Assembly (NCBI GenBank): GCA_041685265.1
Contig: JAWLGC010000005.1
Location: forward strand, 178-64,177
DNA length: 64,000 bases
Direction of reading: 5' to 3'
From: Desulfomicrobiaceae bacterium
Lineage (GTDB): Bacteria; Desulfobacterota; Desulfovibrionia; Desulfovibrionales; Desulfomicrobiaceae
Below the pieces are notes generated by a model that ran no database searches, was not told the origin of the DNA, and worked only from the letters and a program-made list of their open reading frames with translations. Below, piece after piece: positions 3,751-64,000 of this stretch; within the stretch, counting starts at the first letter, position 1; each line of letters begins with the position of its first letter. A program made the position numbers and the translations under genes.

Positions 3751-4908
3751 ATGCCTCGATTCGCACTCAAAAACATCCACTCCGACGGAATTCTGGCCAT
3801 GGTCTTCATCGTTTTGAGCTTCGTTCTTGTGCAACTTCCTTCAGGTTTCGACGATCGCATCGACCAGGATGCAATCCGCTGCAAGGGCACTATTATGGAA
3901 GTTGACGACTCCCAGATTCAACAGCTCGGGATGATTTTTACCGGCGACCAGGGGGTGGTGGTAAAAATCGAGGACGGTCCTTTCGAAGGTCGAATTCTCG
4001 AGGCGTCCAACCCGCTTCTGGGACAGATGGACAGGGATAAAATTTTCAAGCCAGGCGACATAGCCCTCATTGTCCTGACCGTAACCGACGACGAAATCGT
4101 ATACGTCAACCCCCAGGAACACTACCGCATCGACCTGGAGTTGCTTCTGCTCGGTCTATTCGTTCTGGCACTGACCTTGTTCGGCGGATGGACCGGCGTC
4201 AAAGCATTGGTCTCCTTCGGATTTTCCGCCGTGTGCATGTGGAAGGTGCTAATCCCTCTCATCCTCCTGGGATGGGCTGCCATTCCCGTGGCCCTGGGCG
4301 TCGTCACCCTGCTTACCGCAACCGTCATCTTTCTCGTGGCCGGTCTGAGTCGGAAAGGCTTCACCGCCTTTGCAGGCGCCATGCTGGGAGTACTCACCAG
4401 TTGCGTCCTGTCCGTAATCTTTACCAGAGCCTTTCATGTCCACGGGGCGATCATGCCCTTTGCCGAAACTCTGCTCTACTCCGGATTCGGGCACCTGAAC
4501 CTGACCGACATCTACTGCGCAGCCGTGTTTCTGGCAGCCTCGGGCGCAGTTATGGATCTGGCCATGGACGTGGCCGCGAGCATGGATGAAGTGGTCAGCA
4601 AAAAACCGGGAATCACCCGGCTCGAAGCGCTGCGATCCGGGCTGAGCGTGGGCAGAGTGGTCGTCGGCACAATGACAACCACCCTGCTCTTTGCCTATTC
4701 CGGTGGGTACATCACCCTGCTCATGGCCTTCATGGCCCAGGGGATCCCGCTGGTGAACGTTGCCAACCTGATCTACGTGGCTGCGGAAGTACTCAAAACC
4801 CTGGTCGGCAGCTTCGGTCTGGTCATGGTCGCCCCGTTCACCGCCCTGGTCGGGGCGATCATCCTGGTCCCCTCCGGAGACCGGAGGCAGGTCGCCCGGG
4901 AAGAATAA
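3751..4908 (+). CDS. YibE/F-family integral membrane protein
   Basis: 385-aa ORF with an N-terminal soluble beta-rich part followed by multiple TM helices. Overall sequence pattern is typical of YibE/F (PF07907-like). Function unknown. Confidence 0.7.
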   Translation: MPRFALKNIHSDGILAMVFIVLSFVLVQLPSGFDDRIDQDAIRCKGTIMEVDDSQIQQLGMIFTGDQGVVVKIEDGPFEGRILEASNPLLGQMDRDKIFKPGDIALIVLTVTDDEIVYVNPQEHYRIDLELLLLGLFVLALTLFGGWTGVKALVSFGFSAVCMWKVLIPLILLGWAAIPVALGVVTLLTATVIFLVAGLSRKGFTAFAGAMLGVLTSCVLSVIFTRAFHVHGAIMPFAETLLYSGFGHLNLTDIYCAAVFLAASGAVMDLAMDVAASMDEVVSKKPGITRLEALRSGLSVGRVVVGTMTTTLLFAYSGGYITLLMAFMAQGIPLVNVANLIYVAAEVLKTLVGSFGLVMVAPFTALVGAIILVPSGDRRQVAREE

Positions 4909-10315: not shown

Positions 10316-12361
10316 ATGCCCCCTTTGCGCGCTTTCTTCCCGGCTCTTTTCACAGGCTCCCTTCTTCTGCCGCACCCGGCCCGTTCTCAAGCCGAACATC
10401 TCGACGCAGAAATCGCCGGCCTGGTCCACCCCACAAGATCCATCGGTGACGGGTTGATCACATACCTTTCCCAGGCCGGGACAGAAGTGATCATTCTGGC
10501 CATTTTCACCATCCTGACCCTGATCGCCCTGATCCGAACCCAGATTCTGCGCAACAGAATCTCCGCCCGATCTCAGGAGCTTCAACTGGCCAACAAGGCC
10601 CTCGAGGCAGAGATCCGGGGCAGGCGCCGGGTCCAGCAGGACCTCGACCTGGAGCGAGCCTACTTCTCCCAGCTGTTTGCCAATTCCCCCCAGGCTATCA
10701 TACTCATCGGCCGGGACGGGGCCATTGTGGATCTGAATGCAGGATTTGAAAAACTCTTCGGGGTAAGCAAAGAGGATCTGGCCCACGGGTTCGACTGGAA
10801 AAAGCTGATCCCGGGGGAGTATGTCCAGGAAGCGATCTCCATCCGCAAAACAATTCTAGGCGGAAAACCGCTTATCCGGGAAACGGTTCGGGTTCATAAG
10901 CAGGGGTATCCCATTCCGGTCTGTATGACCGGATACCCGGTCCTGCTCCAGGGCAGAATCGAGGCCATATTCTACATCTACTCCGACATCTCCGAACGAA
11001 AATCATTTGAAGAACAACTCGTCACCCGGGCCTGCTACGACACCCTGACCGGACTGCCCAACCGGAGTCTGTTCCTGGACCGCCTGAACCGGGCCATCGT
11101 CCGCAGAAAACAAAACCAGAATCCATCCTTTGCCGTACTCATGCTCGACCTGGACAGATTCAAAAGGGTCAACGACAGCCTGGGCCACCAGGCAGGGGAT
11201 GCCCTGCTTGCCGAAATCGGATCCCGCCTGCAACGCTGCGTACGGTCCATGGATACCGTTGCCCGGTTCGGGGGGGACGAATTCGCGATTCTGCTCGAAG
11301 ACCTCTCCACGGTCCGGGAGATCCTGCCGGTGATCGAACGCATCCAACGCATCATGGATCGTTCCTGCCGGATCGCGAATCGACACATTCATACGAGCAC
11401 CAGCATCGGGGTCGTTCTCGACGGTTCGCGTTATGACACGGCCGACCCCATGCTTCGGGATGCCGATATCGCCATGTACCGGGCCAAAGATCGCGGCCCG
11501 GGAAAGTTCAAGATCTTCAATCAACGGATGCACGTCCGGGCCGAAGAAAGCCTGTATATGGAAAATGCCCTGCGCCAGGCAATGGGTACAGCCCAAATCT
11601 CCCTGCATTACCAGCCCATCGTATCCGTAAGCGATGCCTCCATCATCGGATTCGAGGCACTGCTTCGATGGAACCATCCCGAAATCGGCCGGATTGCACC
11701 GGACAGGTTCATCCCTCTGGCCGAAGAAACAGGACTGATAATCCAGCTTGGTCAATGGGTTCTGCACGAGGCATGTACAATGCTCGCCAGGTGGCGATCC
11801 ATGCCGGGTAACGACAGCCTGACCATGAGCGTAAACCTCTCCACCCGCCAGCTGGAACAAAAAGACCTGGTCCCCTTTATTTCACGTCTGCTGTCGACGC
11901 ACGATCTTCCCGGGTCCGCCCTTAAACTGGAGATCACCGAAAACCTGCTCATGCAGAACAGCCGTGTCTGCCTGGAAAAACTCCAGGAATTAAAAAAACT
12001 CGAACTGGACCTGGCTGTGGACGATTTCGGCACCGGGTACTCATCACTGAGCTACCTGCAGCAGTTTCCCGTTGATCAACTGAAGATCGACAGATCTTTT
12101 GTGAGCGGACAATCCGCAACAACCAAAGGACGGGAGATTGTCCGGGCCATCATCGACATGGCCAGACATCTGAAACTCAAGGTAGTGGCCGAAGGCGTGG
12201 AGGAACAGGACCAGCTCATCAGGTTGCGCGACCAGGGGTGCGATCACGCCCAGGGCTATTTCTTTTCCCGCCCCCTGTGTCAGGAGAAGGCGGAAGGACT
12301 TCTGTGCACCCCCGGAGATCACCAGTCCGGGCCCGCCGATCTCGTCGCCCCGCACGGATGA
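10316..12361 (+). CDS. Membrane-anchored PAS-GGDEF-EAL c-di-GMP turnover protein
   Basis: ORF 10211..12361. 'GGDEFAILL', 'FEALLRW', 'DDFGTGYSSL', 'KIDRSF', a TM segment and a coiled coil. Start placed at MPPLRAFF (signal-like); the start is uncertain. Confidence 0.88.
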   Translation: MPPLRAFFPALFTGSLLLPHPARSQAEHLDAEIAGLVHPTRSIGDGLITYLSQAGTEVIILAIFTILTLIALIRTQILRNRISARSQELQLANKALEAEIRGRRRVQQDLDLERAYFSQLFANSPQAIILIGRDGAIVDLNAGFEKLFGVSKEDLAHGFDWKKLIPGEYVQEAISIRKTILGGKPLIRETVRVHKQGYPIPVCMTGYPVLLQGRIEAIFYIYSDISERKSFEEQLVTRACYDTLTGLPNRSLFLDRLNRAIVRRKQNQNPSFAVLMLDLDRFKRVNDSLGHQAGDALLAEIGSRLQRCVRSMDTVARFGGDEFAILLEDLSTVREILPVIERIQRIMDRSCRIANRHIHTSTSIGVVLDGSRYDTADPMLRDADIAMYRAKDRGPGKFKIFNQRMHVRAEESLYMENALRQAMGTAQISLHYQPIVSVSDASIIGFEALLRWNHPEIGRIAPDRFIPLAEETGLIIQLGQWVLHEACTMLARWRSMPGNDSLTMSVNLSTRQLEQKDLVPFISRLLSTHDLPGSALKLEITENLLMQNSRVCLEKLQELKKLELDLAVDDFGTGYSSLSYLQQFPVDQLKIDRSFVSGQSATTKGREIVRAIIDMARHLKLKVVAEGVEEQDQLIRLRDQGCDHAQGYFFSRPLCQEKAEGLLCTPGDHQSGPADLVAPHG

Positions 12362-20008: not shown

Positions 20009-20084
20009 GCCGAGGTAGCTCAGTCGGTAGAGCAGGGGACTGAAAATCCCCGTGTCGGCAGTTCGATTCTGTCCCTCGGCACCA
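20009..20084 (+). tRNA. tRNA-Phe (anticodon GAA), CCA encoded
   Basis: Manual cloverleaf: GCCGAGG TA GCTC AGTCGGTA GAGC A GGGGA CTGAAAA TCCCC GTGTC GGCAG TTCGATT CTGTC CCTCGGC A CCA. Confidence 0.95.
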
Positions 20085-20211: not shown

Positions 20212-20287
20212 GCCGAGGTAGCTCAGTCGGTAGAGCAGGGGACTGAAAATCCCCGTGTCGGCAGTTCGATTCTGTCCCTCGGCACCA
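20212..20287 (+). tRNA. tRNA-Phe (anticodon GAA), identical second copy
   Basis: 76 of 76 identical to 20009..20084. The 14-nt 5' leader TTCGTCGGTTGCGGT is also duplicated. Confidence 0.95.
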
Positions 20288-39265: not shown

Positions 39266-39311
39266 CATTTCACCTCTGGCCCACACAAACTCGCCAAACC
39301 AGGCCCCTCTT

Positions 39312-39380
39312 CCTTCGCGCCTCTTCGCGTCCTTCGCGGTAAGATTCTTTCACCGCGAAGGACGCGAAGGAATGCGAAGG
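39312..39380 (+). repeat. Long perfect hairpin built from CTTCGCG repeats between trpF and trpB
   Basis: CTTCGCGTCCTTCGCGGT (39323..39340), an 11-nt loop, then ACCGCGAAGGACGCGAAG (39352..39369): 18 bp perfect. Extended by CCTTCGC/GCGAAGG across an internal loop. No T tract. Confidence 0.8.
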
Positions 39381-39474
39381 GGGAATTTGAGCAGCGATGC
39401 GTAATTTCTGTTCGTTATAGAGCTGACGTCAATATTGCACTTTGACACCTTAACAACCAATTTCGAGAACAACC

Positions 39475-45347: not shown

Positions 45348-45400
45348 TACTCCATTATATCACTCCGCGGCGGCCGGCCACCGGCCGCCATTTCCTCTGC

Positions 45401-45440
45401 GGCCTGTCCGGTTTTCCTGTTCACCGGACAGGCCTTTTTT
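45401..45440 (+). terminator. Rho-independent terminator after glnN
   Basis: GGCCTGTCCGGT tttcctgttc ACCGGACAGGCC followed by TTTTTT. A second hairpin, GGCGGCCGG cca CCGGCCGCC, lies at 45369..45389. Confidence 0.85.
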
Positions 45441-45545
45441 GTTGGTTTTTGGTTTCCGGTTTTTCGTTTCTGGTTGTTGGTTTCTGGTTTCCGGCATGTG
45501 CCTTCCTCGCTCCTGCTAAAAACCAGAAACGAAAAACCGGAAACC
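45441..45545. repeat. Heptad-periodic array (nnYnGTT x7-8) forming a perfect 25-bp inverted repeat
   Basis: gttggtt tttggtt tccggtt tttcgtt tctggtt gttggtt tctggtt. The arm 45451..45475 is the exact reverse complement of 45521..45545, with a 45-nt loop. Confidence 0.9.
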
Positions 45546-45666
45546 TTCCCCGGCAACTTGCAAAACATTGCAGAGCCTTGTACCCAATACAGACAAAGAA
45601 TCCAGCCCGCACCCGGCCACATGGTGCGGCACCGGTGTCACTCACTCAACTGAACGAGGAACCACT

Positions 45667-51388: not shown

Positions 51389-51470
51389 GATCGTTTCCTT
51401 CATATTTTTAATTCTAAGATTCTAGAATTGAAGACAAATTACAATTTTTCCGCTATGATATAAAATTTTC

Positions 51471-51595
51471 AGAATCCCAGAATCCCAGAATCCCAGAATC
51501 CCAAAATCCCAGAATCCCAGAATCCCAGAATCCCAGAATCCCAAAATCCCAGAATCCCAGAATCCCAGAATCCCAGAATCCCAGAATCCCAGAAT
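51471..51595. repeat. Octanucleotide tandem repeat AGAATCCC (15 full units plus 5 nt)
   Basis: Units 5 and 10 are AAAATCCC, which gives a 40-bp higher-order unit. The array abuts the kinase stop codon (51597) and lies about 80 nt upstream of rdgB. Confidence 0.97.
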
Positions 51596-57314: not shown

Positions 57315-57317
57315 AAA

Positions 57318-57359
57318 CCAAGGCTATAGCCCATAGTCCATAGCCTCTTGCCCCTAGCC
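57318..57359 (+). repeat. Heptad-periodic array nnTnGCC (5-6 units) in the hisS-aspS spacer
   Basis: (ccaaggc) tatagcc catagtc catagcc tcttgcc cctagcc. TAG triplets at 57327, 57334 and 57341 are spaced exactly 7 nt apart. Confidence 0.85.
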
Positions 57360-59212: not shown

Positions 59213-59702
59213 AGAAATCGTCACCTACCCTGATCCGATCCTGGCCCGGAAATCCGAGCCCGTCGCAGAAATCACCGACGAGATCAGGGAACTTGCCGGC
59301 GAAATGGCCGAAGCCATGTACGAAAACAAGGGGATCGGCCTGGCCGCACCCCAGATCGGCGAGAATATCAGGCTGGTCACAGTGGACCTCTCCGGGCCGG
59401 ACGAGCGGAACGACCTGCAGGTGCTGGTCAATCCGCGGATCACAGCCAAAAGCGGTTCCACGGAATCCGAAGAGGGATGCCTGAGTGTGACCGGATACCG
59501 GGCCAAAGTGAAGCGGGCCGAGTTTGTAACTCTTACCGCCACGGACCTGGATGGCAACGAAATCACTCTTGAAGCCGACGATCTGCTGGCCATCTGCCTG
59601 CAGCATGAACTCGACCACCTGGACGGCGTGCTGTTCATCGATCATATCAGCCGCCTGAAACGGTCTCTGTACGAGAAGAAGCTCAAAAAATGGAAAAAAT
59701 AA
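59205..59702 (+). CDS. def: Peptide deformylase
   Basis: '[10 protein letters not shown]', 'EGCLS', 'HELDHL'. Start at MAREIV, overlapping the aspS stop. Confidence 0.94.
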
Positions 59703-60646
59703 CTCCGCTGCGTATCGTGTACATGGGCACGCCGGATATCGCGGCCACCATCCTGCGCCGCCTCCTCACCTGGGAAGGCGGCCGGGTGGTGGGCGTGTAC
59801 ACCCAGCCCGACCGCCCCTGCGGCCGGGGGCAGGTGTGCAGGCCTTCGGCCGTGAAGCAGGTGGCTCTTGAACAGGGGCTGGACATTTTCCAGCCGGTCA
59901 ACTTCAAGGATGAAGCGGACCGCAAGGTTCTGGCCGACCTGGAACCCGACCTGCTGGTGGTGGCCGCCTACGGGTTGATTCTGCCCCGATCCGTACTGGA
60001 CATTGCTCGCCTCGGGGCCGTGAACGTACACGCCTCCCTGCTGCCCGGGTACCGCGGGGCCGCTCCTATCCAGCGGGTGATCATGGACGGAGAACAGGTC
60101 ACCGGCATCACCATCATGCAGATGGAGGCAGGCCTGGACTCCGGCCCCATGCTCCTGCAGCGCGCCCTGGCCATCGGCATCGACGATACTGCGGCCACCC
60201 TGCACGACGAGCTGGCAGACATGGGAGGACGGGTATTGGTGGAGGCTCTGGACCGGATGGTCGCAGGGACCCTCAAACCCATCGAACAGGATCACGAACT
60301 GGCCACCTACGCCCCCAAGCTGAAAAAAAAGGAAGGGCTCATCGACTGGAACCGCCCGGCCGAAGAGATCCACAACCGCATCCGCGGCCTGTATCCCTGG
60401 CCCGGGTCCTGGTTCGACTGGGACGGCATCCCGGGCAGGACGGTCCGGCTGACACTGTTCCCGGGCCGGGTGGGCCGGGAGCGGACCGCCGATGAAATAC
60501 CGGGCACCATCCTGGGGGAAGAGGAAGACAGCCTTGCCATCGTGTGCGCGGACAAAATCTATCTCCTGCCCGGGGTCAAACCCGCTTCGGGCAAGCCTAT
60601 GGACACCAAGGCATTTCTGTGCGGGTACATGAGCCGCTGCGGATGA
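59690..60646 (+). CDS. fmt: Methionyl-tRNA formyltransferase
   Basis: 'IVYMGTPD', 'HASLLPGYRGAAPIQ'. Confidence 0.94.
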   Translation: MEKITPLRIVYMGTPDIAATILRRLLTWEGGRVVGVYTQPDRPCGRGQVCRPSAVKQVALEQGLDIFQPVNFKDEADRKVLADLEPDLLVVAAYGLILPRSVLDIARLGAVNVHASLLPGYRGAAPIQRVIMDGEQVTGITIMQMEAGLDSGPMLLQRALAIGIDDTAATLHDELADMGGRVLVEALDRMVAGTLKPIEQDHELATYAPKLKKKEGLIDWNRPAEEIHNRIRGLYPWPGSWFDWDGIPGRTVRLTLFPGRVGRERTADEIPGTILGEEEDSLAIVCADKIYLLPGVKPASGKPMDTKAFLCGYMSRCG

Positions 60647-60654
60647 ATAAAAAA

Positions 60655-60792
60655 GGGAATAGGCAAGAGGCGAGGGGCTATAGGCAATAGGGAAGAAATA
60701 CCCCCGCCCATAGCCGGTTGCCGATTGCCTATCGCCTCTTGCCTATAGCCGATCGCCTATTGCCCATGGCCTCTCGCCCATCGCCTCTAGCC
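60655..60792. repeat. Heptad-periodic arrays in inverted orientation: GGCnnnn x5-6, then nnnnGCC x13
   Basis: Left arm (60655..60696): gggaata ggcaaga ggcgagg ggctata ggcaata gggaaga. Right arm (60702..60792): ccccgcc catagcc ggttgcc gattgcc tatcgcc tcttgcc tatagcc gatcgcc tattgcc catggcc tctcgcc catcgcc tctagcc. 60659..60673 is the exact reverse complement of 60732..60746. Confidence 0.9.
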
Positions 60793-60809
60793 CTCCCCTT
60801 CGGAGCTGC

Positions 60810-61658
60810 ATGTCAAAACAGTATTCCCCTTTAGAGCAGGAAATCCGGGACACTTTCGTGGCCCGGAAACGCGTCTTCATCGGCCTGATCTCGGGATCGT
60901 CCATTTTCATCTGCCTGCTCCTGATCCTGCTCTGGGTCATCCCCTTCGTGGGACTGGCCAACATCCACCCCTCTGCTCCCTGGATCCTCGGGACGCTCGT
61001 GATTGCAGCCGTTGGTGCCATTGTCTGGGGTGCTCTGGCCCTGGTCCTGAATATTCTTCTGGGCAGACCGGTGCTGTTCGCCAAGAAACTGCGCGGACTG
61101 ACCATCAAGTTGTTTCTGCCGTTGATGACCCTGCTCGGACGATTTGCGGGACTGTCCAAGCAGGAGGTCCGGGCCTCGTTCATCAAGGTGAACAATGAGC
61201 TGCTTCGAGGGGAGGGCAGGACCTATCCCCCGGACCGCATCCTGATGCTCATGCCCCACTGCATCCAAAACAGCCGGTGCAGATACCGCCTGACCTACGA
61301 CATCGAAAACTGCAAACGGTGCGGCAAATGCCCTATCGCCGGACTCCTGGAACTCCGGGACAAGTACGGTGTGCACCTGGCCATCGCCACGGGGGGCACC
61401 ATTGCCCGGCGCATCGTGGTCCAAACCAGGCCCAAATTCATTATCGCCGTGGCCTGCGAACGGGACCTGGCTTCGGGTATCCAGGATGTCTATCCCGTAC
61501 CGGTCTTCGGCGTGCTCAACCGCCGCCCCTTCGGTCCCTGCCTGGACACCAACGTGCCCCTGCACCATGTGGAATGGGCCCTGCAGCAGTTTCTGGTCCC
61601 GGCCTCCATTTCTTCTTCCGTGCCTGCATCCAAAGACGACAATGACAAAACAGCCTAA
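60810..61658 (+). CDS. DUF116-family membrane protein
   Basis: N-terminal TM helices plus 'PHCIQNSRCRYRLTYDIENCKRCGKCPI...IATGGTIARRIV...IIAVACERDL'. Sits in the fmt-rsmB position typical of DUF116. Confidence 0.7.
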   Translation: MSKQYSPLEQEIRDTFVARKRVFIGLISGSSIFICLLLILLWVIPFVGLANIHPSAPWILGTLVIAAVGAIVWGALALVLNILLGRPVLFAKKLRGLTIKLFLPLMTLLGRFAGLSKQEVRASFIKVNNELLRGEGRTYPPDRILMLMPHCIQNSRCRYRLTYDIENCKRCGKCPIAGLLELRDKYGVHLAIATGGTIARRIVVQTRPKFIIAVACERDLASGIQDVYPVPVFGVLNRRPFGPCLDTNVPLHHVEWALQQFLVPASISSSVPASKDDNDKTA

Positions 61659-63103: not shown

Positions 63104-64000
63104 TCACACCTGCAGACTCCCCCGGTATTCCTCAATTGAGGCAATCCCCAGCTCTTCCCCAAGCTCGGCCACTTCACCCACAAGGTTGAAAGCGAAGTCC
63201 GGACGCAGGAAATTTCCCGTGCCCACCTGGACCGCAGAGGCTCCCACAAGCAGGAACTCGAATACGTCCTCAACCGAGGAAATGCCGCCCATGCCCACCA
63301 CGGGAACATCCACGGCCCGGCAGACCTGATGGACCATGCGCAGGGCCACGGGCTTGATGGCCGGGCCGGACAGTCCGCCGACCACATTGGCCAGTCTCGG
63401 CGTGCGTCTTCTGATATCCACGGCCATGCCGCTCAGGGTGTTGATCAGCGAAAGGCAGTCCGCCCCGGCGTCCACGACGGCCCGGGCCACCACGGTGATG
63501 TCCGTCACATTGGGGCTCAACTTGACCATGACCGGAAGGGAGCCGGATTTCTTCTTGACCGCCTCCACGACCTTCGCGCCCATGGCCGGATCCTGCCCGA
63601 ATTGGACTCCTCCCTCTTTGACGTTGGGACAGGAGATGTTCACCTCCAGGGCCGCGATACCCTCTTCTCCGGCCAGCACCCCGGCCAAATCCGCGAATTC
63701 CTCGGCGGACTGCGCGTACAGGTTGGCGATCACGGCCGTTTCGCTGTGCGGCAGCCTGGGCAGTTTTTCCTTGAGGAACTGTTCCACCCCGATGTTCTGC
63801 AGCCCGATGGCATTGAGCATGCCTGCCGATGTTTCTACGATACGCGGTGTGGGATTGCCCAGACGCGGCTTGAGTGAAAGCCCCTTGACCGCGATACCGC
63901 CCAGCCTGGCCAGATCCCCGTAGCGCATGAACTCCAGACCGTAGCCGAACGTGCCCGAGGCGGGAATAATGGGATTTTTAAGCTCCAGCCTGCCGATGCG
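63104..64000 (-). CDS. pyrD: Dihydroorotate dehydrogenase catalytic subunit (class 1), with its 5' end outside the window
   Basis: 'NISCPNVKEGG', 'GGISSVEDVFEFLLVGASAVQVGT'. The reading frame stays open to position 64000 ('LKNPIIPASGTFGYG'). Confidence 0.9.
   Translation of the reverse strand, partial: RIGRLELKNPIIPASGTFGYGLEFMRYGDLARLGGIAVKGLSLKPRLGNPTPRIVETSAGMLNAIGLQNIGVEQFLKEKLPRLPHSETAVIANLYAQSAEEFADLAGVLAGEEGIAALEVNISCPNVKEGGVQFGQDPAMGAKVVEAVKKKSGSLPVMVKLSPNVTDITVVARAVVDAGADCLSLINTLSGMAVDIRRRTPRLANVVGGLSGPAIKPVALRMVHQVCRAVDVPVVGMGGISSVEDVFEFLLVGASAVQVGTGNFLRPDFAFNLVGEVAELGEELGIASIEEYRGSLQV

Follow-up and report, generated by a model that had tools for sequence, protein, structure and literature searches.

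Xanthomonas genomes each carry about 185 heterogeneous heptamer arrays of the form (GGGANTN)n, in which positions 1-4 and 6 of the unit are conserved (Rehm et al. 2015, PMC4692102). About 90% of these arrays are intergenic, lying mainly between co-oriented open reading frames (ORFs) and about 28 nucleotides (nt) from the upstream ORF, and in 70 to 75 cases two arrays form a convergent inverted pair capable of folding into a stem-loop (PMC4692102). They are mostly transcribed and show extensive variation in length and sequence between sister species, no function has been found for them, and the excess of heptamers has been ascribed to slippage of DNA polymerase, a proposal cited by Rehm et al. 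2015 (PMC4692102). The Nostoc heptamer GGGGA(C/T)T has been treated together with the Xanthomonas repeats (PMC4692102). In cyanobacteria, 7-bp repeats of the STRR type form a hairpin between hupS and hupL, for which a role in transcript stability or translational coupling has been suggested (PMC2670836). Direct repeats of the heptamer TAACTGA are found in marine Beggiatoaceae, cyanobacteria, and some Bacteroidetes, where arrays of two to six near-perfect copies lie mainly just upstream of start codons, with a single inverted case, and the binding of CspB to heptamers has been discussed for these repeats (MacGregor 2015, PMC4679880). In the literature that we searched, we found no published account of such repeats in Desulfovibrio, Desulfomicrobium, or the Desulfovibrionales. 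Here we analyze an element in a 64,000-nt stretch of DNA from a Desulfomicrobiaceae bacterium (the window), in which 13 tandem heptads of the type nnTnGCC face six of the inverse type GG(C/G)nAnn in the spacer between fmt and a DUF116 gene. The element is probably a slippage-generated, hairpin-forming intercistronic array of heterogeneous heptanucleotide repeats of the STRR/Xanthomonas type, and it would accordingly not be a gene-specific regulatory site.

Like the Xanthomonas arrays, the fmt-DUF116 element is built of tandem 7-nt units with certain positions fixed (3 and 5-7 here, 1-4 and 6 there), and it is intergenic, lying between co-oriented genes, near the upstream ORF and beside housekeeping genes. 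In both cases arrays converge and face each other in an arrangement capable of forming a stem-loop, and in both the array varies between sister taxa, here from 7 to 13 units at the same spacer. The differences lie in the unit, which is GGCnAnn/nnTnGCC here and GGGAATC in Xanthomonas, and in the host, a member of the Desulfomicrobiaceae within a sulfate-reducer lineage. The four or more tracts of three Gs that define a G-quadruplex (G4) repeat in Xanthomonas are not present; the runs are GGG, GGGG, and GGG, with the others GG. A G-quadruplex element of the Xanthomonas kind is therefore unlikely, most G runs being only GG. With the cyanobacterial STRR sequences the element shares 7-bp tandem repeats, the capacity to form a hairpin, a position between genes, and presumed cotranscription with them. 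It differs in belonging to another phylum, in having a unit, YMTNGCC, that is not among the heptamers quoted for cyanobacteria, and in being heterogeneous around a fixed T-GCC core, whereas STRR units are usually near-perfect copies. The TAACTGA repeats are similar in forming intergenic heptamer arrays that are missing from relatives with shorter spacers and in which assemblies often break, but the arrays described here are long, have heterogeneous units, and face an inverse arm. Overall, the element has every architectural feature of the heptamer-array class and lacks only those specific to single families, namely a G4 unit and a cyanobacterial host with its units.

Anatomy of the fmt-DUF116 element

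The right arm occupies positions 60702 to 60792 of the plus strand and, read in a register of 7, consists of 13 heptads with the consensus Y-M-T-N-G-C-C; Tandem Repeats Finder lists it at 60718-60793 with periods 7, 14, and 21. From 60702 onward the units are CCCCGCC, CATAGCC, GGTTGCC, GATTGCC, TATCGCC, TCTTGCC, and TATAGCC, followed by GATCGCC, TATTGCC, CATGGCC, TCTCGCC, CATCGCC, and TCTAGCC, so that all 13 end in GCC and 12 of the 13 have T at position 3. The left arm, at 60655 to 60696 on the same strand, consists of six inverse heptads, GG(C/G)nAnn, of the reverse-complement type of the right-arm units (GGGAATA, GGCAAGA, GGCGAGG, GGCTATA, GGCAATA, and GGGAAGA); four of these begin with GGC and two with GGG, and Tandem Repeats Finder reports the arm at 60654-60691 with period 7. 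The apex of the stem-loop, GGGAAGAAATACCCCCGCC (60690 to 60708, plus strand), is the best-conserved part across six versions of the element in relatives. The motif GCC-N4-GCC-N4-GCC-N4-GCC occurs 11 times in the window, each time inside this element, against a mean of 0.10 in dinucleotide shuffles. A lag-7 self-match scan of the 64 kb returned four regions where 0.05 would be expected. The heptad pattern is far beyond chance.

The two arms are inverted copies of one unit type and contain perfectly complementary stretches: one of 15 bp (60659-60673 with 60732-60746), two of 9 bp, and an additional one of 12 bp (60676-60687 with 60739-60750). Several alternative registers reach 73 to 82% complementarity over 33 to 44 nt, and the element is therefore not a simple hairpin. 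Apart from the 12-bp pairing, which it did not list, an earlier, sequence-only reading of this locus (here the original prediction) described the structure correctly, having reported the 13 nnTnGCC heptads, an inverse array immediately upstream, the 15-bp and 9-bp pairings, and a unit order unlike that of a simple hairpin. Three independent Logan assemblies carry the identical array sequence, ruling out an assembly artifact. A CRISPR-like array is likewise ruled out, as the units are contiguous and without spacers, and so is a coding region or peptide repeat, as the 7-nt indels found among relatives would break the frame; the only ORFs overlapping the array are short or antisense mechanical ones.

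The upstream gene, fmt (methionyl-tRNA formyltransferase; 59690 to 60646, plus strand), was identified as an ORF with Pfam Formyl_trans_N/C matches, the latter taken on the identical gene in contigs L001-L003, and ends with a stop codon at 60644-60646. An A-rich spacer, ATAAAAAA (60647 to 60654, plus strand), separates the stop codon from the first repeat unit, so that the array begins 8 nt past the end of fmt; A-rich stretches also lie directly 5' of the sister element described below (57315-57321) and of the elements in contigs L084 and L085. Beyond the right arm lies a conserved flank, CTCCCCTTCGGAGCTGC (60793 to 60809, plus strand), which is nearly the same in all relatives and contains a Shine-Dalgarno-like GGAG at 60802-60805, 4 nt ahead of the ATG of the DUF116 gene (60810 to 61658, plus strand; ORF with a match to PF01976). 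rsmB follows next on the same strand, giving the gene string def-fmt-DUF116-rsmB. The fmt-DUF116 spacer is thus 163 nt long, both of its neighbors are on the plus strand, and its intergenic status, with the fmt stop at 60646 and the ATG at 60810 as originally proposed, agrees with the ORFs, with independent gene calls, and with Pfam matches on the identical contigs. A consensus scan found no σ70 promoter-like or terminator-like sequence at the array, and the sense strand has no T-tract 3' of the right arm; a promoter for DUF116 or a sense-strand intrinsic terminator is thereby ruled out. No Rfam covariance model matched the element at its gathering score, which rules out a known RNA family, and a permissive local Rfam search returned only subthreshold matches to miRNA precursors, that is, to generic hairpins. 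No tRNA or tmRNA was found at the array.

Turnover among relatives and the T-GCC core

The closest named relatives of the window contig belong to the Desulfomicrobiaceae and to Desulfomicrobium. In Desulfomicrobium genomes and metagenome-assembled genomes (MAGs), in which the DUF116 protein is about 75% identical in amino acid sequence, the array is absent and the distance from the fmt stop to the DUF116 start is about 5 to 20 nt. Because the two genes nearly abut there without an array, the 163-nt spacer represents a lineage-specific acquisition, and the element was inserted into, or grew in, a spacer of that small size. No comparable noncoding period-7 array was found in the 20-kb neighborhoods of the Desulfomicrobium relatives, and an array at the orthologous spacer was looked for in other genera and not found.

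Among close relatives, defined as contigs with above 90% identity in the DUF116 protein, the array is kept throughout, in six versions with 13, 11, 11, 9, 7, and 7 right-arm units. The window version, with 6 left and 13 right units, differs from that shared by L084, L211, L213, and L214 (6 left, 11 right) by two separate 7-nt gaps. L210 has 5 left and 11 right units, with the unit variants in a different order, and L209 has approximately 6 left and 9 right units, including fresh tandem triplications of CATAGCC and of TCTTGCC. The L085 version has 7 right-arm units, as does the version shared by L086 and L215. Across the versions the first units, the last unit, the apex, the Shine-Dalgarno flank, and the facing arm are conserved and the interior is reshuffled; the apex sequence GGGAAGAAAT is found in every one. 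Length changes do not always involve whole units, as L085 and L086 differ by a 3-nt indel at the junction of apex and arm.

A second array of the same unit type lies 3.4 kb away, between hisS and aspS (57322 to 57359, plus strand, period 7), and consists of one left unit (GGCTATA) overlapping five right units (TATAGCC, CATAGTC, CATAGCC, TCTTGCC, and CCTAGCC). At this spacer the window has five units, L084 retains a remnant that is 28 nt shorter, L085 and L086 have a complete inverted pair, and L215 has no array; the GCC-heptad unit type occupies both loci in three lineages. In L210, positions 809-978 of the hisS-aspS spacer contain a different, 170-nt palindromic element (…CCCGTAGGGGCAGACCTGCGTGTCTGCCC … GGGCAGACACACAGGTCTGCCCCTAC…) in place of the heptads, and the same spacer therefore hosts different hairpin-forming inserts in different strains. 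A third array in the window, with an octamer unit, has 16 units there and 4 or 5 degenerate units in L085; L084, with a spacer of 25 nt, lacks it. The comparisons among these contigs show gain and loss of whole units, in the form of 7-nt indels, the 28-nt difference at the sister locus, and the fresh single-unit triplications. The turnover at the fmt-DUF116, hisS-aspS, and octamer loci is typical of slippage-prone simple-sequence DNA and not of a conserved regulatory site.

The REP sequences and BIMEs of enterobacteria and pseudomonads are extragenic, often intraoperonic imperfect palindromes that form stem-loops in mRNA and are gained and lost between relatives, and REPs are dispersed copies of a 20- to 40-nt palindrome mobilized by a RAYT transposase. 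The fmt-DUF116 element is similarly an extragenic imperfect palindrome with a stem-loop and with gain and loss between relatives, but its arms are tandem heptads, and the unit type is all that the two loci have in common; they are not dispersed near-identical copies. A copy of a mobile element (MITE or REP) is ruled out, as the fmt-DUF116 and hisS-aspS arrays differ in flanks, loop, and unit order.

Substitutions are unevenly distributed over the unit. Every one of the 58 right-arm units in the six fmt-DUF116 versions ends in GCC. Across 50 units from six arrays at the two loci, nonconsensus bases at heptad positions 1 to 7 number 24, 17, 4, 29, 0, 1, and 0, respectively. When the 18 distinct unit variants are joined in a minimum spanning tree, positions 1, 2, and 4 account for 14 of the 17 substitutions (P = 0.001), the bias across positions is also evident in the window array alone (chi-square P = 3e-4), and all five arm substitutions that separate the window from L084 are at positions 1, 2, and 4. 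These data bear on the suggestion that the element is a neutral slippage relic, a by-product of replication error without constraint or effect that is tolerated in spacers. The rapid gain, loss, and reshuffling of units would fit such a relic, as would the complete absence of arrays from orthologous spacers in close and distant relatives, the arrays of unrelated units at other spacers in the window, and the unrelated functions of the housekeeping neighbors, a situation like that in Xanthomonas, where no role has been found (PMC4692102). A relic should, however, decay evenly over its seven positions, yet T-GCC is spared; moreover, the apex, edge units, and facing arm are kept in six of six fmt-DUF116 versions, and hairpin potential is maintained through unit turnover. 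We consider it unlikely that the element is such a relic.

The fixed core also raises the question of whether a protein reads it, and the original prediction had envisaged a binding platform for an oligomeric RNA- or DNA-binding protein, with the ring-shaped attenuation proteins HutP and TRAP as points of comparison. TRAP sites consist of 9 to 11 (G/U)AG triplets with 2- to 3-nt spacers, and HutP sites of two sets of three UAG triplets spaced by 4 nt. The element has in common with them a short triplet at fixed spacing, and the UAG-N4-UAG period of HutP is also 7, but its triplet is GCC/GGC and it has 13 plus 6 units, as against 3 + 3 for HutP and 9 to 11 for TRAP. The leader, the terminator/antiterminator context, and the regulated operon of those systems are all absent at fmt-DUF116, where consensus terminator and antiterminator sequences are lacking and the array separates two housekeeping genes of the same operon. 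With the array missing from Desulfomicrobium, ranging from 7 to 13 units among close relatives, and accompanied elsewhere in the window by unrelated units of periods 8 and 9, the proposal of an attenuation platform finds no support.

A broader form of this idea is that the invariant T-GCC heptads are a platform for a protein that binds either RNA, as a ring or filament (HutP, TRAP, or CspB-like), or double-stranded DNA. A precedent for the latter is the omega repressor of inc18 plasmids, a ribbon-helix-helix protein that polymerizes along contiguous 7-bp iterons, both direct and inverted. Such a platform would account for the 58 invariant GCCs, the near-invariant T3, and the freedom of positions 1, 2, and 4, for the sparing of the core by substitutions between close relatives, and for the use of one unit type at two loci separated by 3.4 kb, both of which carry it in three lineages. 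Xanthomonas, too, has heterogeneous units built around a fixed core (PMC4692102), and binding of CspB to heptamers has been discussed for TAACTGA (PMC4679880). On the other hand, besides the mismatch in triplet and spacing and the missing leader, terminator, and antiterminator context, fmt, DUF116, hisS, and aspS have no obvious shared regulation; close relatives range from 7 to 13 units at one locus and from a full pair to none at the other; Desulfomicrobium has no array; and the unrelated units of periods 7, 8, and 9 in the window would need several different proteins. A platform of this kind therefore seems improbable.

Folding, strand asymmetry, and the favored explanation

The predicted fold of every fmt-DUF116 version, and of the full hisS-aspS element of L085, is a long, imperfect stem-loop, with the left arm base-paired to part of the longer right arm. 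The z-scores of the RNA folds are -3.9 for the window, -4.7 for L084, -2.3 for L085, and -5.5 for L086 at fmt-DUF116, and -6.6 for the L085 hisS-aspS element; the DNA fold has a z-score of -3.7. The antisense RNA folds better than the sense RNA, by 7 to 18 kcal/mol, in all five GCC-heptad elements, with 4 to 9 G:U pairs compared with 0 to 3. In the minus-strand RNA (60636-60800 of the window and 6462-6595 of L085), a U-tract comes straight after the hairpin: UUUUUUAUUCA (U6) in the window and UUUUUCUUUAC in the hisS-aspS element of L085. The stem-loop is far larger than those of canonical terminators, and no minus-strand gene ends here.

This asymmetry is what would be expected if the element were an antisense-strand terminator or insulator, in which a G:U-rich minus-strand hairpin and its U-tract halt antisense transcription into fmt or hisS, and the lack of a T-tract on the sense side points the same way. 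The nearest minus-strand ORF, however, ends near 63104, with none closer, the fmt version in L085 has only a weak T-tract (CTTTAAAT), and the A-rich spacer after the stop codon, the source of the U-tract, may be coincidental. The consensus terminator scan is also silent at the array, although its limits on stem and loop size would miss so large a hairpin. We therefore regard a role in antisense termination as highly improbable.

The composition of the sense strand would also fit a different role, that of a Rho-loading (rut-like) spacer, on which Rho would load after the fmt stop codon and attenuate DUF116-rsmB, with the number of units tuning polarity. rut sites are C-rich, G-poor stretches of untranslated RNA. 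The 91-nt right arm is 44% C and 20% G, GC skew runs from -0.36 to -0.52 over 60700-60800, and the untranslated array begins 8 nt past the stop codon; with 6 units on the left and 13 on the right, about half of the right arm could be sequestered, and several C-rich units are unpaired in the predicted folds. Against this, arrays of like build are not C-rich on the sense strand, TGGTTTC and GGAUUCUG being examples, the spacer is short, and the Shine-Dalgarno sequence of DUF116 lies within 10 nt. Loading of Rho thus seems very unlikely to be what the element is for.

We favor the explanation that the fmt-DUF116 element is a slippage-generated array. Units would be added and removed by replication slippage, and the facing arm may have arisen, and been kept partly complementary, through intrastrand template switching, that is, quasipalindrome correction. 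The element would be transcribed within the def-fmt-DUF116-rsmB operon, and any effect would be exerted through a generic mRNA stem-loop or a DNA cruciform. As candidate effects, such a structure could shield the upstream cistron from 3' exonucleases and uncouple the translation of fmt from that of DUF116. Effects of this kind have been shown for REP elements in Escherichia coli and proposed for STRR hairpins in cyanobacteria.

Several observations weigh against this explanation. When 26 more flanking bases are included (60640-60815), the z-score of the RNA fold is only -1.5, which is nonsignificant; the significance of the hairpin is thus boundary dependent, because only the element-only range beats the shuffles. 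In the window, the hisS-aspS array lacks both a partner arm and a stable fold (z-score 0.17), and a stem-loop is therefore not obligatory. Transcription of the element, stabilization of the mRNA, and an origin by template switching are all steps that we infer. Pure slippage offers no explanation for the invariant GCC and the position-biased substitutions, and selection on sense mRNA structure does not predict the antisense folding advantage; the T-GCC core and the antisense asymmetry are thus two features that simple slippage does not explain. Given these two features, involvement of a heptad-reading factor or of an antisense function retains a small probability.

Related arrays in the window and in other bacteria

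Tandem Repeats Finder and our own scan identified four further short-period arrays in the window, with periods of 7, 7, 8, and 9, and both unit sequence and even period vary by locus. Three of the four are inverted pairs of unequal arms, one long and the other short; the remaining one, the hisS-aspS array, keeps a single left unit. All five arrays lie between same-strand genes and begin 1 to 88 nt past the upstream stop codon. The second period-7 element (45435 to 45547, plus strand) has an unrelated unit, (YYGGTTT) about seven times facing (AAACCRG) about four times, and follows the gene for a type III glnA and its terminator; its unit can also be written TGGTTTC, and the element has a 25-bp perfect stem and a fold z-score of -6.3. 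The canonical intrinsic terminator 3' of glnA type III, at 45400-45440 (CTGTCCGGT…ACCGGACAG followed by TTTTTTT), leads directly into it, and the TGGTTTC array starts right in the T-tract, as if grown from the terminator tail. The period-9 element (39305 to 39384, plus strand), (TCCTTCGCG) three times facing (CGCGAAGGA) three times, lies between trpF and trpB and has a fold z-score of -6.6.

The period-8 element (51410 to 51595, minus strand), the octamer array mentioned above, consists of 16 copies of CAGAATCC, 96% identical, opposite a short inverse arm (AATTCTAA GATTCTAG). It lies in the spacer that separates the stop codon of a histidine kinase gene from the start of rdgB/Ham1, two minus-strand genes. 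The CAGAATCC copies at 51470-51595 abut the histidine kinase stop codon at a distance of 1 to 2 nt, and the inverse arm, at 51410-51430, is just upstream of the rdgB start. The minus-strand RNA of this array is self-folding, with many G:U pairs and a predicted energy of -79.8 kcal/mol, compared with -15.1 kcal/mol for the plus strand. L084, a 96% identical relative, lacks the array entirely, and the expansion is therefore very recent. Elsewhere in the window, two tRNA-Phe(GAA) genes at 20009-20084 and 20212-20287, about 200 nt apart, have equal Rfam scores.

Metagenome contigs were scanned for five GCC-nnTn units, and arrays were compared at loci L089-L208. Among the matches listed, heptamer arrays came from very diverse bacteria with genomic GC contents of 32 to 74% and consisted mostly of near-perfect heptamers, such as GCCAATA, GCCACTA, GCCTGTT, GCCGATA, and GCCTTTA; many lay at contig ends. 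The original prediction had offered, as an alternative to a binding platform, a genome-specific repeat family of unknown origin, and had pointed to the cyanobacterial STRR elements; the assignment to a repeat family of the STRR type is essentially right; given arrays in such diverse bacteria, genome specificity does not hold. A facing inverse array of at least three units within 200 nt accompanied 31 of the 127 arrays listed, compared with 2 for a reversed-unit control, and among these 31 paired arrays the inverse GGC-type arm was 5' of the GCC-type arm in 23 and 3' of it in 8. The G-arm-first (convergent) order is strand symmetric and matches both the window and the report on Xanthomonas. At L201, a GCCTATT array at about 458-530 is followed at once by TAACTGA repeats, such that one spacer contains mixed heptamer arrays.

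Other Desulfovibrionales loci have degenerate arrays of their own, with periods of 7 to 11 and unrelated units. In L043, from a Desulfonatronovibrio MAG, GTTCAAC/GTTGAAC heptamer arrays at 4694-4743 and 11173-11221 each match the reverse complement of the other almost exactly, as do their flanks; they are 6.4 kb apart and bracket the DUF116 region, and a third copy lies at 11287-11323. They could represent either scattered copies of a single repeat or the termini of a larger inverted structure.

By itself, the fmt-DUF116 locus is unremarkable, being just another intergenic heptamer repeat, and no annotation of a riboswitch-like element or attenuator for DUF116 is warranted. It nevertheless extends hairpin-forming heptamer arrays from cyanobacteria and Xanthomonas to the Desulfovibrionales, and with the metagenome sample it indicates that an architecture of two facing arrays is common and orientation biased. 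The six close versions offer an unusually clean view of how such an array evolves, with stable edges and apex, whole-unit turnover in the interior, and fresh triplications. The T-GCC core is kept in every unit, on both arms, at both loci, and in all six versions, and it is conceivable, if improbable, that a lineage-specific protein reads the heptads one by one, either as an omega-like or other ribbon-helix-helix-like filament on DNA or as an OB-fold/Csp-like protein on RNA. If so, the facing arrays would be a functional element rather than slippage debris, with roles such as stops for antisense transcription or punctuation marks of nucleoid or operon, and they would have a preferred order of G-arm then C-arm that other bacteria share (23 versus 8 among the matches listed). 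The T-GCC core and the antisense folding bias provide testable hints as to why heptamers are favored as a long repeat unit in bacteria.

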